Of a stretch of 25,323 nucleotides of DNA, positions 20,055 to 25,296 are shown piece after piece. The position numbers and the translations under genes were made by a program. The stretch is taken from positions 1-25,323 of the forward strand of contig CACXGJ010000138.1 in the NCBI GenBank assembly GCA_902767125.1, given 5' to 3'. Positions within the stretch are counted from its first letter, which is position 1. The number at the start of each line of letters is the position of its first letter. The DNA comes from an uncultured Ruminococcus sp. (GTDB lineage Bacteria; Bacillota; Clostridia; Oscillospirales; Acutalibacteraceae). The notes below the pieces were generated by a model, which had not been told where the DNA came from, searched no databases, and was given only the letters and a program-made list of their open reading frames with translations.

Positions 20055-22121
20055 ATGCCTTCACTTTTTAAAATACCCGTAAATCAGCTTTGGGGCATAG
20101 GAAAAACAAAAGAAAACGCTTTTAACAGACTTGGTATATATACTGTCGGAGACCTGTTAGAATTTTATCCGAAAAACTATGAGGACTGGAGCAATCCGCT
20201 TTGTATAAACGATGCCTGTATATTCAGCAGAAGCTATCATAACACCCCCTGCTGTATCAAAGCTGATGTAAGACGTGTCTATGAGCCTCATATTGTAAGA
20301 AACAATATGACTATATACAAGGTCGAGGTAAAGGACGAATATAATGATCGTATGACAGTGACCTTCTTCAATCAGTATTATACCTATCAAAAGCTGGTGA
20401 ATGGCGGAGAATACTTATTCTACGGTGTCGTAAAGGACAGTGAATACGGCTATCAGATGGCATCACCGTCAGTCCTTGATGTGTCAAATATGTGTATACA
20501 TCCCGTGTATCCCCAGACTGCCAACCTTACCACAAAACAGATAGAATTTGCTGTAAAACAGTCAATAAATATGCTTCCCGAAAAAGTCAATGATCCTGTT
20601 CCGCCCGATATACTTGAAAAATACAATCTGTGTGAGCTTGGATATGCCATCAAAAATATACATTTCCCCGAAGATCATATTGCCTTGAGCAATGCAAGAC
20701 AAAGACTGATATTCGAGGAGCTTCTGATACTTCAATTGGGTATGGCACGCCTCAAGGGCGGAAGACATGAGGAAACTGCACATAAAATAAAAAAAGACTT
20801 CACAAAGGAATTTTTCAAGATACTTCCATTTAAGCCGACTAATGCTCAAAAGCGGGCTATCGGTGAATGTATATCCGATATGAAAGAAAATGATTATCCT
20901 ATGAACAGGCTTATCCAGGGAGATGTCGGTTCAGGAAAAACCGCTGTTGCGGCAGCAGTGTGCTACAGTGCAGTAAAAAATTCCTTCCAGTGTGCATTCA
21001 TGGCTCCCACAGAGATTCTTGCAGAACAGCATTACAGGACTTTCACCGAATTATTCAAGGATACCGACATAACCGTAGGACTCCTTACAGGCTCCATGAG
21101 AGCCTCTCAAAAGAAAAAAATACAGGAACAGATAAAAAACGGTCAGATAGATATAACTATCGGAACTCATGCCCTTATCTCCGATAAAGTAGAGTTCGAT
21201 TCTCTCGGACTCGTCATAACAGATGAACAGCACCGTTTCGGAGTCGCTCAAAGAGCTGAACTTATTTCAAGGGGCAATAATCCTCATATACTCGTAATGT
21301 CTGCAACCCCCATCCCCCGAACACTTGCCCTGATGATATTCGGAGACCTTGATTTGTCGGTGCTGGATGAGATGCCTCCCGGAAGACAAAAAATAGATAC
21401 GCATTTAATAAGCAGTCGGGCGAAGCCAAAGGCTTATGACTTTATAAAAAGAGAAATAGATAACGGCAGACAATGCTATATAGTATGCCCCGTTGTCGCT
21501 CAAAATGACGAAAACAATCTCATATCCGCCGAAGAATACAGCGATATCCTTGACAGGACAGTCCTGAAAAATTACAGAAGGGCAGTCATTCACGGCAAAA
21601 TGAAGGCTTCCGAAAAGGACAGGATAATGCGGGATTTTTCAGCGGGAAATATTGATATTATCATTGCAACGACTGTTATCGAGGTCGGGATAGATGTCCC
21701 GAACAGTACCATAATTATGATAGAAAATGCAGAAAGATTCGGTCTTTCACAGCTCCATCAGCTTCGAGGACGTGTCGGCAGAGGAAAATATAAATCCTGC
21801 TGTATACTTGTTTCCGATACTCAAAAGAGCAGTACACTTGAAAGATTGAATGTCATGAGAAAAACAAATGACGGATTTGTGATAGCCGATGAAGACCTTA
21901 AGCTCCGAGGTCCGGGGGACTTCTTCGGTGCAAGACAGCATGGACTGCCTGAACTCAAGATAGCTAACCTGTCAAATGCTTCATCTGTCGAAAACGCCAA
22001 AATGGCTGCTCATGTGATACTTGAAAGTGATCCCGACCTGTCATTGAAGGAACACAGGGGACTTTATGTTGAGACTCAAAGGCTCTTTGCGGCAGTGGGT
22101 TCAACAGAAAGACTCCAGTAA
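20055..22121 (+). CDS. recG: ATP-dependent DNA helicase RecG, 688 aa
   Basis: QGDVGSGKT, MAPTEILAEQH, DEQHRFG, MSATPIPRT, QLHQLRGRVGRG and DLKLRGPG; ATG 20055 behind AGGAGG. Confidence 0.98.
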   Translation: MPSLFKIPVNQLWGIGKTKENAFNRLGIYTVGDLLEFYPKNYEDWSNPLCINDACIFSRSYHNTPCCIKADVRRVYEPHIVRNNMTIYKVEVKDEYNDRMTVTFFNQYYTYQKLVNGGEYLFYGVVKDSEYGYQMASPSVLDVSNMCIHPVYPQTANLTTKQIEFAVKQSINMLPEKVNDPVPPDILEKYNLCELGYAIKNIHFPEDHIALSNARQRLIFEELLILQLGMARLKGGRHEETAHKIKKDFTKEFFKILPFKPTNAQKRAIGECISDMKENDYPMNRLIQGDVGSGKTAVAAAVCYSAVKNSFQCAFMAPTEILAEQHYRTFTELFKDTDITVGLLTGSMRASQKKKIQEQIKNGQIDITIGTHALISDKVEFDSLGLVITDEQHRFGVAQRAELISRGNNPHILVMSATPIPRTLALMIFGDLDLSVLDEMPPGRQKIDTHLISSRAKPKAYDFIKREIDNGRQCYIVCPVVAQNDENNLISAEEYSDILDRTVLKNYRRAVIHGKMKASEKDRIMRDFSAGNIDIIIATTVIEVGIDVPNSTIIMIENAERFGLSQLHQLRGRVGRGKYKSCCILVSDTQKSSTLERLNVMRKTNDGFVIADEDLKLRGPGDFFGARQHGLPELKIANLSNASSVENAKMAAHVILESDPDLSLKEHRGLYVETQRLFAAVGSTERLQ

Positions 22122-22155: not shown

Positions 22156-22869
22156 ATGGAAAACTATAATGACTTTTTACAGAGAATAAGCTATCAGCAG
22201 ACCGAACTCCAGATCAGAGACGGGGATTTTACGCCTAATGAGCGAGTTTTTCAGAAAGTAGCTCCCGAAAATTCATTCAAGGCATTCTTTGGTGATACAG
22301 TTGTCTTTGACCTCCCCAAAAAAGTCAAAAAGGCAATTTATCCGATACTTGACAAATTGTATGAAAAATGTCCCGAATGTTTTTGTCAAAGGCTTAATGA
22401 AAATACTATGCACATGACACTGCATGACCTTAATGCTTCCGATAATCTCAATGAGATTGCGTGTGATGTATTCAGCAATGAGATAAAGCTCCTTGAAGTC
22501 CTCGCAAAGAATCCCGTTGAGCATCATAAGATAAAAATGAAGACTAATTTCATTGTCAACATGGTCGATACAAGTCTTGTGCTTACCCTTGTACCCATTG
22601 ATGAGGATGAATGGAACAAGCTCCAAGCCCTCTATGACATGATAAACGAAGTCAGGGTATGCGGATATCCGTTTCTCACTCCGCATATAACCCTCGCTTA
22701 CTTCAATTACAACGGCTTTGACAAGTCATCATCCGACAAGCTCAAAAAAGTGGTTACTTCACTTAATGAAAAACTCGACCTTGAGATACATCTCGATACA
22801 AAGAAACTTTATTATCAGAAATTTGTCAGCATGAACGAATATATAAATATTTTCCGTCTTGCAGAATAA
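22156..22869 (+). CDS. 2H-phosphoesterase-superfamily protein (DUF1868-like), 237 aa
   Basis: Two HxT motifs (MHMTLHDL, PHITLAYF) about 90 aa apart and an N-terminal FFGDTVVFDL motif; start moved to MENYN behind AAAGGA. Confidence 0.75.
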   Translation: MENYNDFLQRISYQQTELQIRDGDFTPNERVFQKVAPENSFKAFFGDTVVFDLPKKVKKAIYPILDKLYEKCPECFCQRLNENTMHMTLHDLNASDNLNEIACDVFSNEIKLLEVLAKNPVEHHKIKMKTNFIVNMVDTSLVLTLVPIDEDEWNKLQALYDMINEVRVCGYPFLTPHITLAYFNYNGFDKSSSDKLKKVVTSLNEKLDLEIHLDTKKLYYQKFVSMNEYINIFRLAE

Positions 22870-22878
22870 AAAAATCTA

Positions 22879-22918
22879 TCCCTTGCGGAAAAAAACATCT
22901 TCCGCAAGGGAGTTTTTT
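22879..22918 (+). terminator. Intrinsic terminator of recG-2H
   Basis: Perfect 12-bp stem TCCCTTGCGGAA/TTCCGCAAGGGA followed by GTTTTTT. Confidence 0.9.
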
Positions 22919-22930
22919 ATTCACTCTGTA

Positions 22931-22959
22931 TTGACAAACATATCACACTGTTATATAAT
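22931..22959 (+). promoter_or_regulatory. Perfect-consensus sigmaA promoter upstream of the mini-array
   Basis: TTGACA-N17-TATAAT; no same-strand ORF downstream. Confidence 0.88.
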
Positions 22960-22980
22960 AAAATCACAGCGTGAAACGTT

Positions 22981-23134
22981 GTTCTTATAATTCCCCATAG
23001 GGGACGAAAGAAGCCCACCGCCATAAATTACCCGTGCATTTCCGTTTTCACAACTCCCTATAGGGGACGATACGCCAGACGGGATATAGTTTATCAAAGC
23101 GTACTCCCTTACAATTCCCCATAGGGGACAAAAA
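22981..23134 (+). CRISPR. Orphan, degenerate CRISPR-like mini-array: 3 repeats of about 30 bp and 2 spacers (33 and 31 bp)
   Basis: R1 22981 GTTCTTATAATTCCCCATAGGGGACGAAAG; R2 23044 GTTTTCACAACTCCCTATAGGGGACGATAC; R3 23105 TCCCTTACAATTCCCCATAGGGGACAAAAA; TCCCC-ATA-GGGGA hairpin; period 63/61 bp; unique spacers; no cas genes in the window. Confidence 0.72.
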
Positions 23135-23138
23135 ATAG

Positions 23139-23172
23139 ACTCCAAAACAAATAATGTTTTGGAGTTATTTTT
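23139..23172 (+). terminator. Terminator closing the mini-array transcript
   Basis: Perfect 11-bp stem ACTCCAAAACA/TGTTTTGGAGT plus TATTTTT, 4 bp after repeat 3. Confidence 0.8.
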
Positions 23173-23184
23173 ATTGCAACAAAG

Positions 23185-23219
23185 AAAAAACCGAACTGCT
23201 TTTCTCAAAAACAGTTCGG
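23185..23219 (-). terminator. Terminator of the EF-G paralogue
   Basis: CCGAACTG/CAGTTCGG stem with a 6-U run on the minus strand, about 20 nt after the stop. Confidence 0.8.
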
Positions 23220-23238
23220 CTCAATTATTGATCGTTAA

Positions 23239-25296
23239 TTATTCTTTTGTGTCGGCAATAACCTTTTGTGCGACCATTGCAGGTGCTTCTTCATAGCGGA
23301 CAAATTCAAAGCTGAAATATCCTCTGCCTTGAGTTGCCTGACGAACAAATGTCGAAAAGTCGCTCATCTCTGCCTGCGGAACTTCCGCTTCAATGGTCTG
23401 CATACGGTCTTCTGACGGGTTCATGCCAAGCACACGTCCACGACGTTTTGTAACTTCGCCCATGACATCACCCATGTTTGCATCAGGCACTGTTGCCTTG
23501 AGCAAACCTACAGGCTCAAGCAGTACAGGACTTGCTTTCGGCATACCGTCTTTATATGCAAGTGCGGCGGCTGTTTTGAATGACATTTCGGAGGAGTCTA
23601 CGGGGTGATATGAACCGTCATAGAGAGTTGCTTTGAGTCCGACAACGGGGAAGCCTGCAAGAGGTCCCTTTGAAATGCTGTCACGGAGTCCCTTTTCGAC
23701 TGCAGGGAAGAAGCCCTTCGGAACCGCACCGCCGACTACTCTTTCTTCAAATATCATATCATCACTTTCACATGGGGAGAACTCTATCCATACATCACCG
23801 AACTGTCCGTGACCGCCTGTCTGTTTCTTGTAACGTCCCTGAACCTTGACGGTTTTTCTGATGGTCTCACGGTATGCTACCTTCGGCTTTGACAGTACAA
23901 CGTCTACACTGTACTTTGATTTAAGTTTGGAAACAACTACATCAAGGTGTTGTTCGCCCATTCCGCTGACAAGCATCTGATGTGTTTCGTGATTTGTTTC
24001 AAATTTGATGGTGGGGTCTTCTTCGCAAAGTTTAGCTATACCGAGTGCAACCTTTTCTTCATCGCCCTTTGTCTTCGGAGCAATAGCCATTGTAAGTGAC
24101 GGTGCAGGATATTCTATACCGTCAAGGACAACTTTTCTTGCAGGAGCTGAAAGGGTATCGCCTGTATTTGTTGCAGAGAGCTTTGCAACTGCACCAATAT
24201 CACCTGCACCTATATAGGGAGCATCCTCAAGCTTCTTTCCTTTGATGGTCATGACCTTTGCTATTCTTTCGGTGTTGCCCGTTCTCATGTTCACAAGAGG
24301 AGTATCGGCTGATACCTTACCCGAAATTACTTTGAAGTATGACAGCTTACCTACAAACGGATCGGCTATTGTTTTGAATACGATAGCGGCAGGCATAGCA
24401 TCATCCTTTACATTCAGCTCAACAGGGTTGCCCTCTGTATCAACTGCAAGCTCGCCTGATTTTTCCTCGGCACTCGGTGCAAGCCATATAAGACCGTTCA
24501 AAAGCTGTTCAACGCCGTAAGTCAAAAGAGCATCACCGCAGAATACAGGGCTTATTGTACCATTCTTTACACCGTGACTTATACCTACGATTATTTCTTC
24601 GGGAGTAAATTCCTCGCCCGAGAAATATTTCTCGAACATTTCATCGCTTGTTTCGGCAACTGCTTCATTTATGGCAGTTCTCAAGCCCTCAAGGCGATCA
24701 CCCATATCGGGGATCGGAACAACGGTTACTTTGCCGTTTATATATTTATAAGCCTTGTATTCAAGAAGATTTACATAACAATCTGCCTGACCGTCAACTA
24801 TATACGGAACTACAACAGGGCATACAGATGGACCGAAGGATGATTTAAGGCTTTCAAAAACACGGTAGAATCTTGCACTTTCATCGCAAAGACCGTTTAC
24901 GAAGAATACCTTTGTAAGACCTCTTTTATCGGCAGCTTTTACAGCCTTTTCGGTACCGACGCTTACACCGCCCTTGCCCGAAACCGTGATGAGCATTGTA
25001 TCGGCAGCTCTTGAAGCTTCACACAGACCGCCTTCAAAGTCAAAAAGCCCGGGAGCATCAATGATATTTATCTTCTTATTTTTCCATTCAAGAGGAGCTA
25101 CACAAGCCTGTACAGAGGTTTTTCTCTTTATTTCTTCGGGATCGAAGTCGCATACGGTGTTGCCTTCGCTGACTTTACCGAGTCTTTCGGAGCCGCCGCA
25201 CAAATAAAGCATAGCTTCCGCAAGAGATGTCTTACCCGAGCCACTGTGACCGGCAAGGGCAATATTGATAATATTTTTTGCGTTATACTGTTTCAA
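23239..25296 (-). CDS. fusA2: Elongation factor G paralogue (EF-G2/FusA2-type), 685 aa
   Basis: EF-G layout (GMGEQHL, KQTGGHGQFG, DGSYHPVDSSEMSF, LLEPV); variant G1 GHSGSGKT; not in an rpsL-rpsG-tuf context as far as visible; TTG start behind AGGAGG. Confidence 0.92.
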   Translation of the reverse strand: MKQYNAKNIINIALAGHSGSGKTSLAEAMLYLCGGSERLGKVSEGNTVCDFDPEEIKRKTSVQACVAPLEWKNKKINIIDAPGLFDFEGGLCEASRAADTMLITVSGKGGVSVGTEKAVKAADKRGLTKVFFVNGLCDESARFYRVFESLKSSFGPSVCPVVVPYIVDGQADCYVNLLEYKAYKYINGKVTVVPIPDMGDRLEGLRTAINEAVAETSDEMFEKYFSGEEFTPEEIIVGISHGVKNGTISPVFCGDALLTYGVEQLLNGLIWLAPSAEEKSGELAVDTEGNPVELNVKDDAMPAAIVFKTIADPFVGKLSYFKVISGKVSADTPLVNMRTGNTERIAKVMTIKGKKLEDAPYIGAGDIGAVAKLSATNTGDTLSAPARKVVLDGIEYPAPSLTMAIAPKTKGDEEKVALGIAKLCEEDPTIKFETNHETHQMLVSGMGEQHLDVVVSKLKSKYSVDVVLSKPKVAYRETIRKTVKVQGRYKKQTGGHGQFGDVWIEFSPCESDDMIFEERVVGGAVPKGFFPAVEKGLRDSISKGPLAGFPVVGLKATLYDGSYHPVDSSEMSFKTAAALAYKDGMPKASPVLLEPVGLLKATVPDANMGDVMGEVTKRRGRVLGMNPSEDRMQTIEAEVPQAEMSDFSTFVRQATQGRGYFSFEFVRYEEAPAMVAQKVIADTKE

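Follow-up and report, generated by a model that had tools for sequence, protein, structure and literature searches.

Anatomy of the array locus

The window analysed here (the whole stretch of 25,323 nt) is contig C138 of a 1.67-Mb metagenome-assembled genome (MAG), G000, which comprises 295 contigs, is 76% complete and originates from bovine rumen or gut samples. A small array unit occupies the interval 22870-23238, which is flanked by a LigT/2H-like gene on the plus strand, ending at 22869 and overlapping the 3' end of recG, and by the convergent gene of an EF-G paralogue (CDS 23239-25296, minus strand). Profile searches identify the neighbours as RecG, a weak LigT/2H-like protein and the EF-G paralogue, and the locus is thus free of cas genes locally, as the first-pass annotation had described it. 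The LigT Pfam match of the upstream ORF (16.6 bits) is under the cut-off, so that the name "2H phosphoesterase" is tentative. The overlap of this ORF with recG spans 56 nt (22066-22121), in a different frame.

The unit opens with a sigma-70-type promoter (22931-22959, plus strand), in which TTGACA (22931-22936) and TATAAT (22954-22959) are separated by a 17-nt spacer and match the consensus at 12 of 12 positions. A short leader follows (22960-22983, plus strand), with TTGTT immediately 5' of the first repeat. The block TATAATAAAATCA..GC..TTGTT of this promoter and leader is common to arrays in three related species (G025, G022 and G017), and TTGTT precedes the first repeat in nine of ten compared leaders of the 28-nt repeat family described below, the exception being G025:C7 with TTGTA. 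At the distal end, the array possesses its own intrinsic terminator (23138-23176, plus strand), a 12-bp stem (23138-23166) followed by a T run, whose hairpin CTCCAAAAC..GTTTTGGAG is kept in G017, G025, G033, G087, G022 and the metagenome contig L110. The whole is framed by the terminators of the neighbouring genes. That of the LigT/2H-like gene, a bidirectional hairpin (22879-22911) detected by terminator scan and as an inverted repeat, insulates the array from read-through, while that of the EF-G paralogue is on the minus strand at 23188-23222. The perfect promoter and the self-contained transcription unit between neighbouring terminators, both proposed at first pass, are therefore present as claimed.

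The predicted array RNA folds far below shuffled controls (z = -4.1), a value to which the terminator and inter-repeat pairing contribute much. Rfam, searched at a permissive threshold over 22500-23600, returned sub-threshold chance matches only, none of them credible. An 85-aa minus-strand ORF running across the array was rejected as coding, being broken by a 1-nt indel in the 98.9%-identical strain L111.

Repeats and spacers

The repeat core TYCCCYATAGGGGAC occurs at 22991, 23054 and 23115, giving periods of 63 and 61 nt; when up to one mismatch is allowed, the window contains three copies, versus none in 100 dinucleotide shuffles of it. Comparison with intact relatives sets the repeat unit at 28 nt. 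All features of the array are read on the plus strand. Repeat 1 (22984-23011, 28 nt) is formed by a 5' half, CTTATAAT, the hairpin UCCCC-AUA-GGGGA and the tag CGAAAGA. Repeat 2 (23047-23073, 27 nt) has a degenerate 5' half, a stem with a U-G wobble (CCCT..GGGG) and a tag, CGATAC, that is one base short. The terminal repeat 3 (23108-23133) retains the full 5' half and the hairpin, with an A run in place of the tag. The two spacers are unique: spacer 1 (23012-23046) is about 35 nt long and identical in strain L111, and spacer 2 (23074-23107) is about 34 nt long and carries two substitutions in that strain. At least three direct repeats, a regular period and unique spacers of similar length are what defines a CRISPR array in generic terms, and the three hairpin repeats with two unique spacers seen at first pass are retained here with a refined unit length.

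The hairpin folds in all three repeats, whereas the 5' halves and tags deviate from the family consensus, which agrees with the earlier description of degenerate repeats that keep their hairpin. The C-to-T change in repeat 2 does pair as U-G, and the T at 23059 is a strain polymorphism (C in L111). The consensus tag of the 28-nt family is CGAATAC and that of the other arrays of the genome is CGAAAC; the window tags CGAAAGA and CGATAC match neither exactly. The hairpin and the first five tag bases of the window array are those of the type III-A arrays of the genome.

Related arrays and cas genes in the same genome

The hairpin and tag (CCCC-RTA-GGGG-ACGAAAC) are found at two further loci of the genome, and both are arrays. 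That on C244 comprises seven repeats with the full 33-nt unit GTTGCAACTCGCACACCCCGTAGGGGACGAAAC. That on C254 (4795-5140) comprises four repeats ending in CCCCATAGGGGACGAAAC, follows an rluD-like pseudouridine synthase gene and possesses its own promoter and terminator. In both, a near-consensus promoter lies about 30 nt from the first repeat and a GAAAC-less terminal repeat is followed by a terminator, a layout identical to that of the window unit. The three arrays of the genome (C138, C244 and C254) have shortened leaders and non-identical repeats; the C244 leader resembles the leader of about 200 nt of G087:C23 minus its distal part. The motif is confined to these three arrays, with no dispersed single copy in the assembly, which excludes a REP-like element. 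Both the search for arrays with a related repeat and the search for dispersed copies had been suggested in the first-pass annotation, the latter as a possible refutation, and both outcomes favour a CRISPR array.

A search for cas loci, suggested in the same place, was likewise productive. A complete type I-C operon, cas3-cas5-cas8c-cas7-cas4-cas1-cas2, is located on C116 (1-9247); its repeat, GTCACACCTCGCATGAGGTGTGTGAGTAGAAAT, present in at least eight copies at C116, is unrelated to the window repeat. To note, a second array fragment with the type I-C repeat is found at C141:4199-4462. A type III-A operon, csm1-csm2-csm3-csm4-csm5-cas6, is located on C68, where csm1 is cut by the contig end (TIGR02578, 274 bits). 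The C68 Cas6 (PF10040, 51.6 bits; PADLOC Cas6_IIIa, 154 bits) is the only Cas6 found in the assembly, and all RAMP matches are on C68. A terminator lies 3' of cas6, and the contig ends 77 nt beyond. Neither Cas6b nor a type III-B Cmr locus was found in this 76%-complete assembly, and no cas1/cas2 or other adaptation genes were seen linked to the type III locus. The window array thus resides in a genome endowed with type III-A and type I-C cas genes. Of the idea that a cas-free unit might rely on Cas6/Cas proteins encoded elsewhere, the first part is borne out by the csm-cas6 operon on C68; the guide or decoy use made of them is not, as discussed below.

Orthologous units and linked cas loci in the genus

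Related arrays were sought in 69 species representatives of the genus. The 33-nt repeat family is present as ordinary arrays in G003, G011, G022 and G087. In G079, a single CCCCATAGGGGAC repeat, with its promoter, leader and terminator, comes directly after the orthologous csm5-cas6 genes, and the hairpin type is thus physically linked to a Csm locus. The 36-nt repeat of a Lachnospirales MAG ends in AATTCCCCATAGGGGACGGAAAC, the classic type III-A repeat style. Both observations uphold the original view of the hairpin and tag as type III-style.

A search with the window flanks revealed homologous units in G017 and G025, both beside the terminator of the EF-G paralogue. The array unit therefore occupies the EF-G site in three species (G000, G017 and G025), and the arrays at this site are always tiny, with 1-2 spacers. 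Homologous units also exist at a second locus, adjoining a GTPase-like gene, in G033, G022 and G087. At the same locus, a repeat-pattern search identified G017:C36, which has at least 11 perfect repeats, its end being unassembled, and which is tied to the scaffold family through its L110-like leader and flank. Homologous units possess from two to at least 11 repeats, and their spacers differ in every lineage, none being shared with the window. The 28-nt repeat of the relatives is CTTTACCTTTCCCATTGGGAATTGATAC. In the units that can be read to the end, a truncated terminal repeat and a terminator hairpin are common features: a tag-less terminal repeat stands directly 5' of the terminator in six of the seven relatives' arrays with a readable end, the terminal repeat of G022:C167 being more decayed.

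The leaders belong to two related types. The first, with the -10 region TATAATAAAATCA, is found in G000, G025 and G022:C167, and the second in G017, G087 and L110, while G033 assembles the upstream part of the second type and the TATAATAAAATCA -10 region. A promoter-leader of about 30 nt heads relatives' arrays of 5 to at least 11 perfect repeats, and such a short leader is thus not the sign of a regulatory mini-array. The lack of a long leader had been singled out at first pass; the leader is indeed short, but this is the normal state of the repeat family and not a peculiarity of the locus.

In G017 and G011, the 28-nt family flanks a second kind of Cas6 (TIGR01877, 99.5 bits), beside which are encoded Cmr1 (PADLOC, 233 bits) and Cas10/Cmr2 (TIGR02577, 99 bits), that is, a type III-B locus. 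A type III operon is thus found linked to this hairpin type in G079 (Csm) and to the 28-nt scaffold in G017 and G011 (Cmr). The repeat family is tied to type III by this adjacency in relatives, together with the resident csm-cas6 operon. Across the genus, where most genomes are fragmented MAGs, no clear correspondence between repeat sub-family and Cas6 type emerges, several genomes having arrays without the expected Cas6, or the reverse.

Repeat sub-families and strain variants

Two informative contigs, L110 and L111, were retrieved by a scan of JGI metagenomes. L110 exhibits three perfect CTTACAATTCCCCATAGGGGACGAATAC copies and a terminal repeat, with the same leader and terminator layout as the window. 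Compared to the L110 consensus, repeat 1 of the window has one difference in the 5' half and three in the tag, and repeat 2 has four differences in the 5' half, the C-to-T change in the stem and one missing tag base. These differences identify the window array as a degenerate member of the L110-type sub-family. Between the two 28-nt sub-families, 10 of 28 positions are different, among them a stem pair with a compensatory change (U-A to C-G; UUCCC/GGGAA to UCCCC/GGGGA), and the tag shifts from AUUGAUAC to ACGAAUAC. Upstream of the array, L110 and G017:C36 are 96.5% identical over 285 aligned nt, yet their repeats belong to different sub-families, which indicates that repeats have been swapped or seeded anew on a scaffold that hardly changed.

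L111 is a strain variant of the window locus, with 98.9% identity over 1235 nt and the same two spacers. Inside the unit, the differences are confined to repeat 2 and spacer 2 (T23059 to C, an extra G and two substitutions in spacer 2), which amounts to three substitutions and one indel over 242 nt, compared with a divergence of about 1% in the flanks. Two other studies yielded DNA contigs that also contain the window array with the same two spacers: record 10 of run X2 spans 22532-23544 with five differences, and records 14 and 16 of run X5 also lie over the array. The unchanged spacers give no sign of ongoing acquisition. Other contigs of runs X2, X5 and X9, the last from an RNA library, display the same repeat with different spacers, as does L110, demonstrating that this repeat forms other arrays. 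A 1667-nt contig of X2 ends in the terminator of the window array followed by diverged EF-G-side sequence. Spacer content hence varies between lineages, as expected for CRISPR, and the array of this strain is stable. The comparison of fixed and variable spacers envisaged at first pass has a divided outcome: the spacers are fixed in samples of this strain and different between species and in other rumen samples.

Spacer targets and expression

Using blastn-short, all spacers of the three arrays were compared with the whole assembly, and only matches of 13-16 nt were obtained, with nothing beyond 13-15 nt for spacer 1. In the assembled 76% of the genome, host complementarity does not exceed 16 nt, and seeds of 10-12 nt are indistinguishable from chance. 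Blastn searches of INPHARED with the spacers of the window array returned no match, and those with the 11-repeat array of G017 (10 full spacers) returned one chance-level match, to a Shewanella phage. Nor did exact scans of IMG/VR yield a match, whether with four 21-22-mers covering both window spacers or with a degenerate 23-mer representing a spacer whose form C244 and G003 share. Among the 69 congeners, including those with the cognate cas loci, the best matches of the two spacers are 20-28 nt long with 86-95% identity, in unrelated genes and with per-genome E values of at least 0.008; this outcome speaks against targets in prophages or cas genes of the sampled genomes.

At the EF-G locus, the alignment of the single G017 spacer with the single G025 spacer scores 12, a value reached by none of 500 shuffles, and this likeness is only suggestive of an old, vertically inherited spacer; the same score is also reached by 4 of 992 unrelated spacer pairs. 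The window spacers are unrelated to both. As regards expression, RNA-library contigs stop short of the window spacers, the strain in those runs departing from the window at 22791, and among the RNA runs searched with the array alone, none matched. Expression is not disproved by the missing RNA match.

Functional interpretation

The unit is best explained as a genuine small type III array of the 28-nt family, remote from cas genes and following the standard route from promoter through Cas6 to crRNA, a reading to which a probability of about 0.68 can be given. From the sequence, we infer transcription, Cas6 processing, effector loading and a target as follows. The sigma-70 promoter would drive an RNA of about 205 nt ending at the array's own terminator, in which each repeat is predicted to form a 5-bp C/G hairpin. 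A Cas6 made elsewhere, for which the type III-A Cas6 of C68 is the only candidate found, would cut at the 3' base of each hairpin. Cleavage would release two crRNAs whose 5' tags of 7-8 nt derive from the repeat and which may serve RNA-guided immunity in a type III (Csm) effector.

Small CRISPR arrays remote from cas genes are well known, and it is common for type III effectors to draw on arrays at other loci. The type III-A (Csm) arrays of Staphylococcus epidermidis and Streptococcus thermophilus are Cas6-processed, with repeats ending in GGGGACGAGAAC or GGGGACGGAAAC that provide an 8-nt 5' tag. The window array shares with them a C/G hairpin followed by an ACGxxAC-type tail, and its genome encodes Cas6 and csm1-5. 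It differs in its 28-nt repeat (versus about 36 nt), a loop of only 3 nt, degenerate tags, a position on another contig than csm, between housekeeping genes, and in that no cas1/cas2 were found linked to the type III locus of the genome. The mini-arrays flanking the type III-B (Cmr)/Cas6 loci of G017 and G011 are closer in form, having a 28-nt repeat, a tag-less terminal repeat, a terminator hairpin and the same leader layout with related sequence (the leaders of G017 itself being of the second type). Their repeats harbor UUCCC/GGGAA and the tag UUGAUAC, whereas those of the window harbor UCCCC/GGGGA and a CGAAUAC-like tag, and, unlike in G017 and G011, a Cas6/Cmr locus was not found in the window's assembly.

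A comparison can also be drawn with orphan arrays, as covered by the review PMC8616872. The E. coli orphan I-F arrays (Almendros et al. 2016, summarised in PMC8616872) carry anti-cas spacers and are the source of the anti-cas idea. Like the orphan arrays outlined there, the window array is small, has its own promoter and lies far from cas genes, and its repeat is akin to a family linked to cas genes in the same genome or in relatives. Unlike them, it has a compatible effector class in its own genome, and, unlike those of the E. coli I-F orphan arrays (CRISPR4 type) as summarised there, its spacers lack a match to the cas loci of the 69 congeners.

Being one of a genus-wide family of small type III arrays, the window array is probably an ordinary immune array, static or decaying, and not a new kind of regulatory RNA. 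The shortened leaders, non-identical repeats and lack of type III adaptation genes suggest that the arrays of this genome are expressed but no longer growing. With its degenerate repeats and tags, its constant spacers and no type III-linked adaptation genes, the window array looks static, and it may be weakly functional at most or heading to decay. The first-pass preference for a working RNA "rather than a decaying array" is consequently not sustained, the repeats and tags being degenerate relative to the intact consensus and the two spacers unchanged in other studies. Use of the resident type III-A machinery meets an objection: in relatives, it is another Cas6 and type III-B Cmr that accompany the 28-nt scaffold. 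As that Cmr/Cas6 locus was not found in the 76%-complete assembly, the cognate nuclease of the scaffold may be absent.

The main rival, unlikely as it is, is a non-functional relic, left after loss of the cognate Cas6/type III-B (Cmr) module and now drifting, in which promoter and terminator persist through the little time elapsed or through the insulation that they give to the two neighbouring genes. The degenerate 5' halves and tags, the wobble and 1-nt deletion of repeat 2 when set against the perfect L110 consensus, the failure to find either Cas6b or Cmr in the assembly, the restriction of in-unit strain differences to repeat 2 and spacer 2 (three substitutions and one indel per 242 nt, flanks about 1%) and the invariably tiny size of the EF-G-locus arrays (1-2 spacers) are all consistent with drift. 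However, the promoter is perfect (12 of 12), none of the three hairpins has lost its fold, and both the terminal repeat and the terminator remain intact. Furthermore, the two other arrays of the genome, which accompany the resident Csm/Cas6, have an identical hairpin and tag start, the unit is retained beside the EF-G gene in three species, and 24% of the genome is unassembled.

It is doubtful, though conceivable, that the promoter-leader-array-terminator assembly is a long-lived scaffold in which repeats are re-tuned or swapped as the type III/Cas6 module changes. The idea draws on the different repeats of L110 and G017:C36 behind nearly identical upstream sequence, and on the window repeats, whose hairpin and tag start match those of the resident type III-A arrays in an assembly where no Cmr/Cas6 module was found. 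If true, a second type III system would have recruited the mini-array from a first, and the two guides would be maintained as a fixed cassette.

The proposal of the first-pass annotation, a trans-acting regulatory guide (crlRNA/CreA-like) or a decoy (Racr-like) that uses or titrates Cas6 and type III proteins, is decidedly improbable. A complete transcription unit is retained at one chromosomal site in three species, and a common origin is possible for the single spacers of G017 and G025 (score 12, 0 of 500 shuffles). In addition, the preprint 10.1101/2024.12.27.630466 reports crlRNAs controlling defence genes away from cas loci, for other CRISPR types. As portrayed in the sources on crlRNA/CreA mini-arrays and on phage Racr or solitary-repeat decoys (10.1101/2024.12.27.630466, 10.1101/2024.10.29.618823 and PMC8616872), these elements resemble the window unit in being short, with few and degenerate repeats. 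In contrast with crlRNA/CreA so described, the window unit adjoins no cas, toxin or defence gene, and its spacers have no detected partial self-complementarity in the assembled genome, no spacer of the three arrays having a self match above 16 nt. In contrast with the decoys so described, it occupies a chromosomal EF-G site in G000, G017 and G025 and lies neither on a phage or plasmid nor in another mobile element. Unlike either class as characterised there, it has homologous scaffolds in relatives that bear normal many-spacer arrays. The spacers are also unmatched in the 69 congeners, carriers of cas loci included, and unrelated to those of G017 and G025, whose mutual score is equally attained by 4 of 992 unrelated pairs.

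A non-CRISPR origin, either as a REP-like dispersed palindrome or as an unrelated structured small RNA with three protein-binding hairpins, may draw on the few repeats and the lack of local cas genes but is hardly credible, given that the motif is present only in three regularly spaced clusters of the genome, that identical repeats form variable-spacer arrays in relatives and metagenomes (which also contradicts REP-like palindromes) and that Rfam gave no match.

Implications for compact type III arrays

With the small type III array as the preferred reading, the locus resolves into an ordinary, known kind of element, namely a small, cas-remote type III array. Beyond the locus itself, the analysis documents compact type III arrays as a family that extends across this genus of rumen bacteria. 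In its members, about 30 nt separate the promoter from the first repeat, and the terminator comes right after a terminal repeat without a tag. Such compact units will often be overlooked by annotation pipelines or labelled as orphan. The orthologous scaffolds with two repeat sub-families provide a natural data set on the co-evolution of Cas6/effector specificity and repeats.

Additional features of the array family

Several minor features of these arrays deserve description. In C254, one repeat has an extended tag, GAAAAAC, and the 5' half GTTTAACAAACA also occurs in a mixed array of the congener G011. In C244, one "spacer" is 252 nt long (G000:C244:2304-2555, minus strand; about 1640-1900 of locus L003), a count that includes the 15-nt 5' half of the next repeat. 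A 63-aa ORF (MSLIFPPRELIGKF...) lies within it, has a plausible ribosome-binding site, runs into the next repeat and lacks a Pfam match; this ORF could be a captured fragment of a gene, or else a small gene that was inserted into a CRISPR array or is expressed from one. Position 1 of contig C213 lies about 30 nt from the array promoter site of L110 (L110:428), with 89% identity, and a fourth array is thus probably present in the genome, unassembled.

In relatives, an insert resembling a MITE, about 110-180 nt long and with inverted TAGCAAT/ATTGCTA heptamer runs at its borders, splits a 28-nt-family repeat in G022:C167 (L051) and G011:C76 (L127), and runs of GAGAGTGGAG-like decamers are found upstream of several arrays of the family. 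Finally, directly 3' of the type III-B cas6 in G011:C76 (L127) stands a solitary repeat with the hairpin TCCCCATTGGGGA and the tail TTGAGAT. It is intermediate between the 28-nt sub-families, and the C/G-rich stem thus also occurs in a Cmr-linked context.
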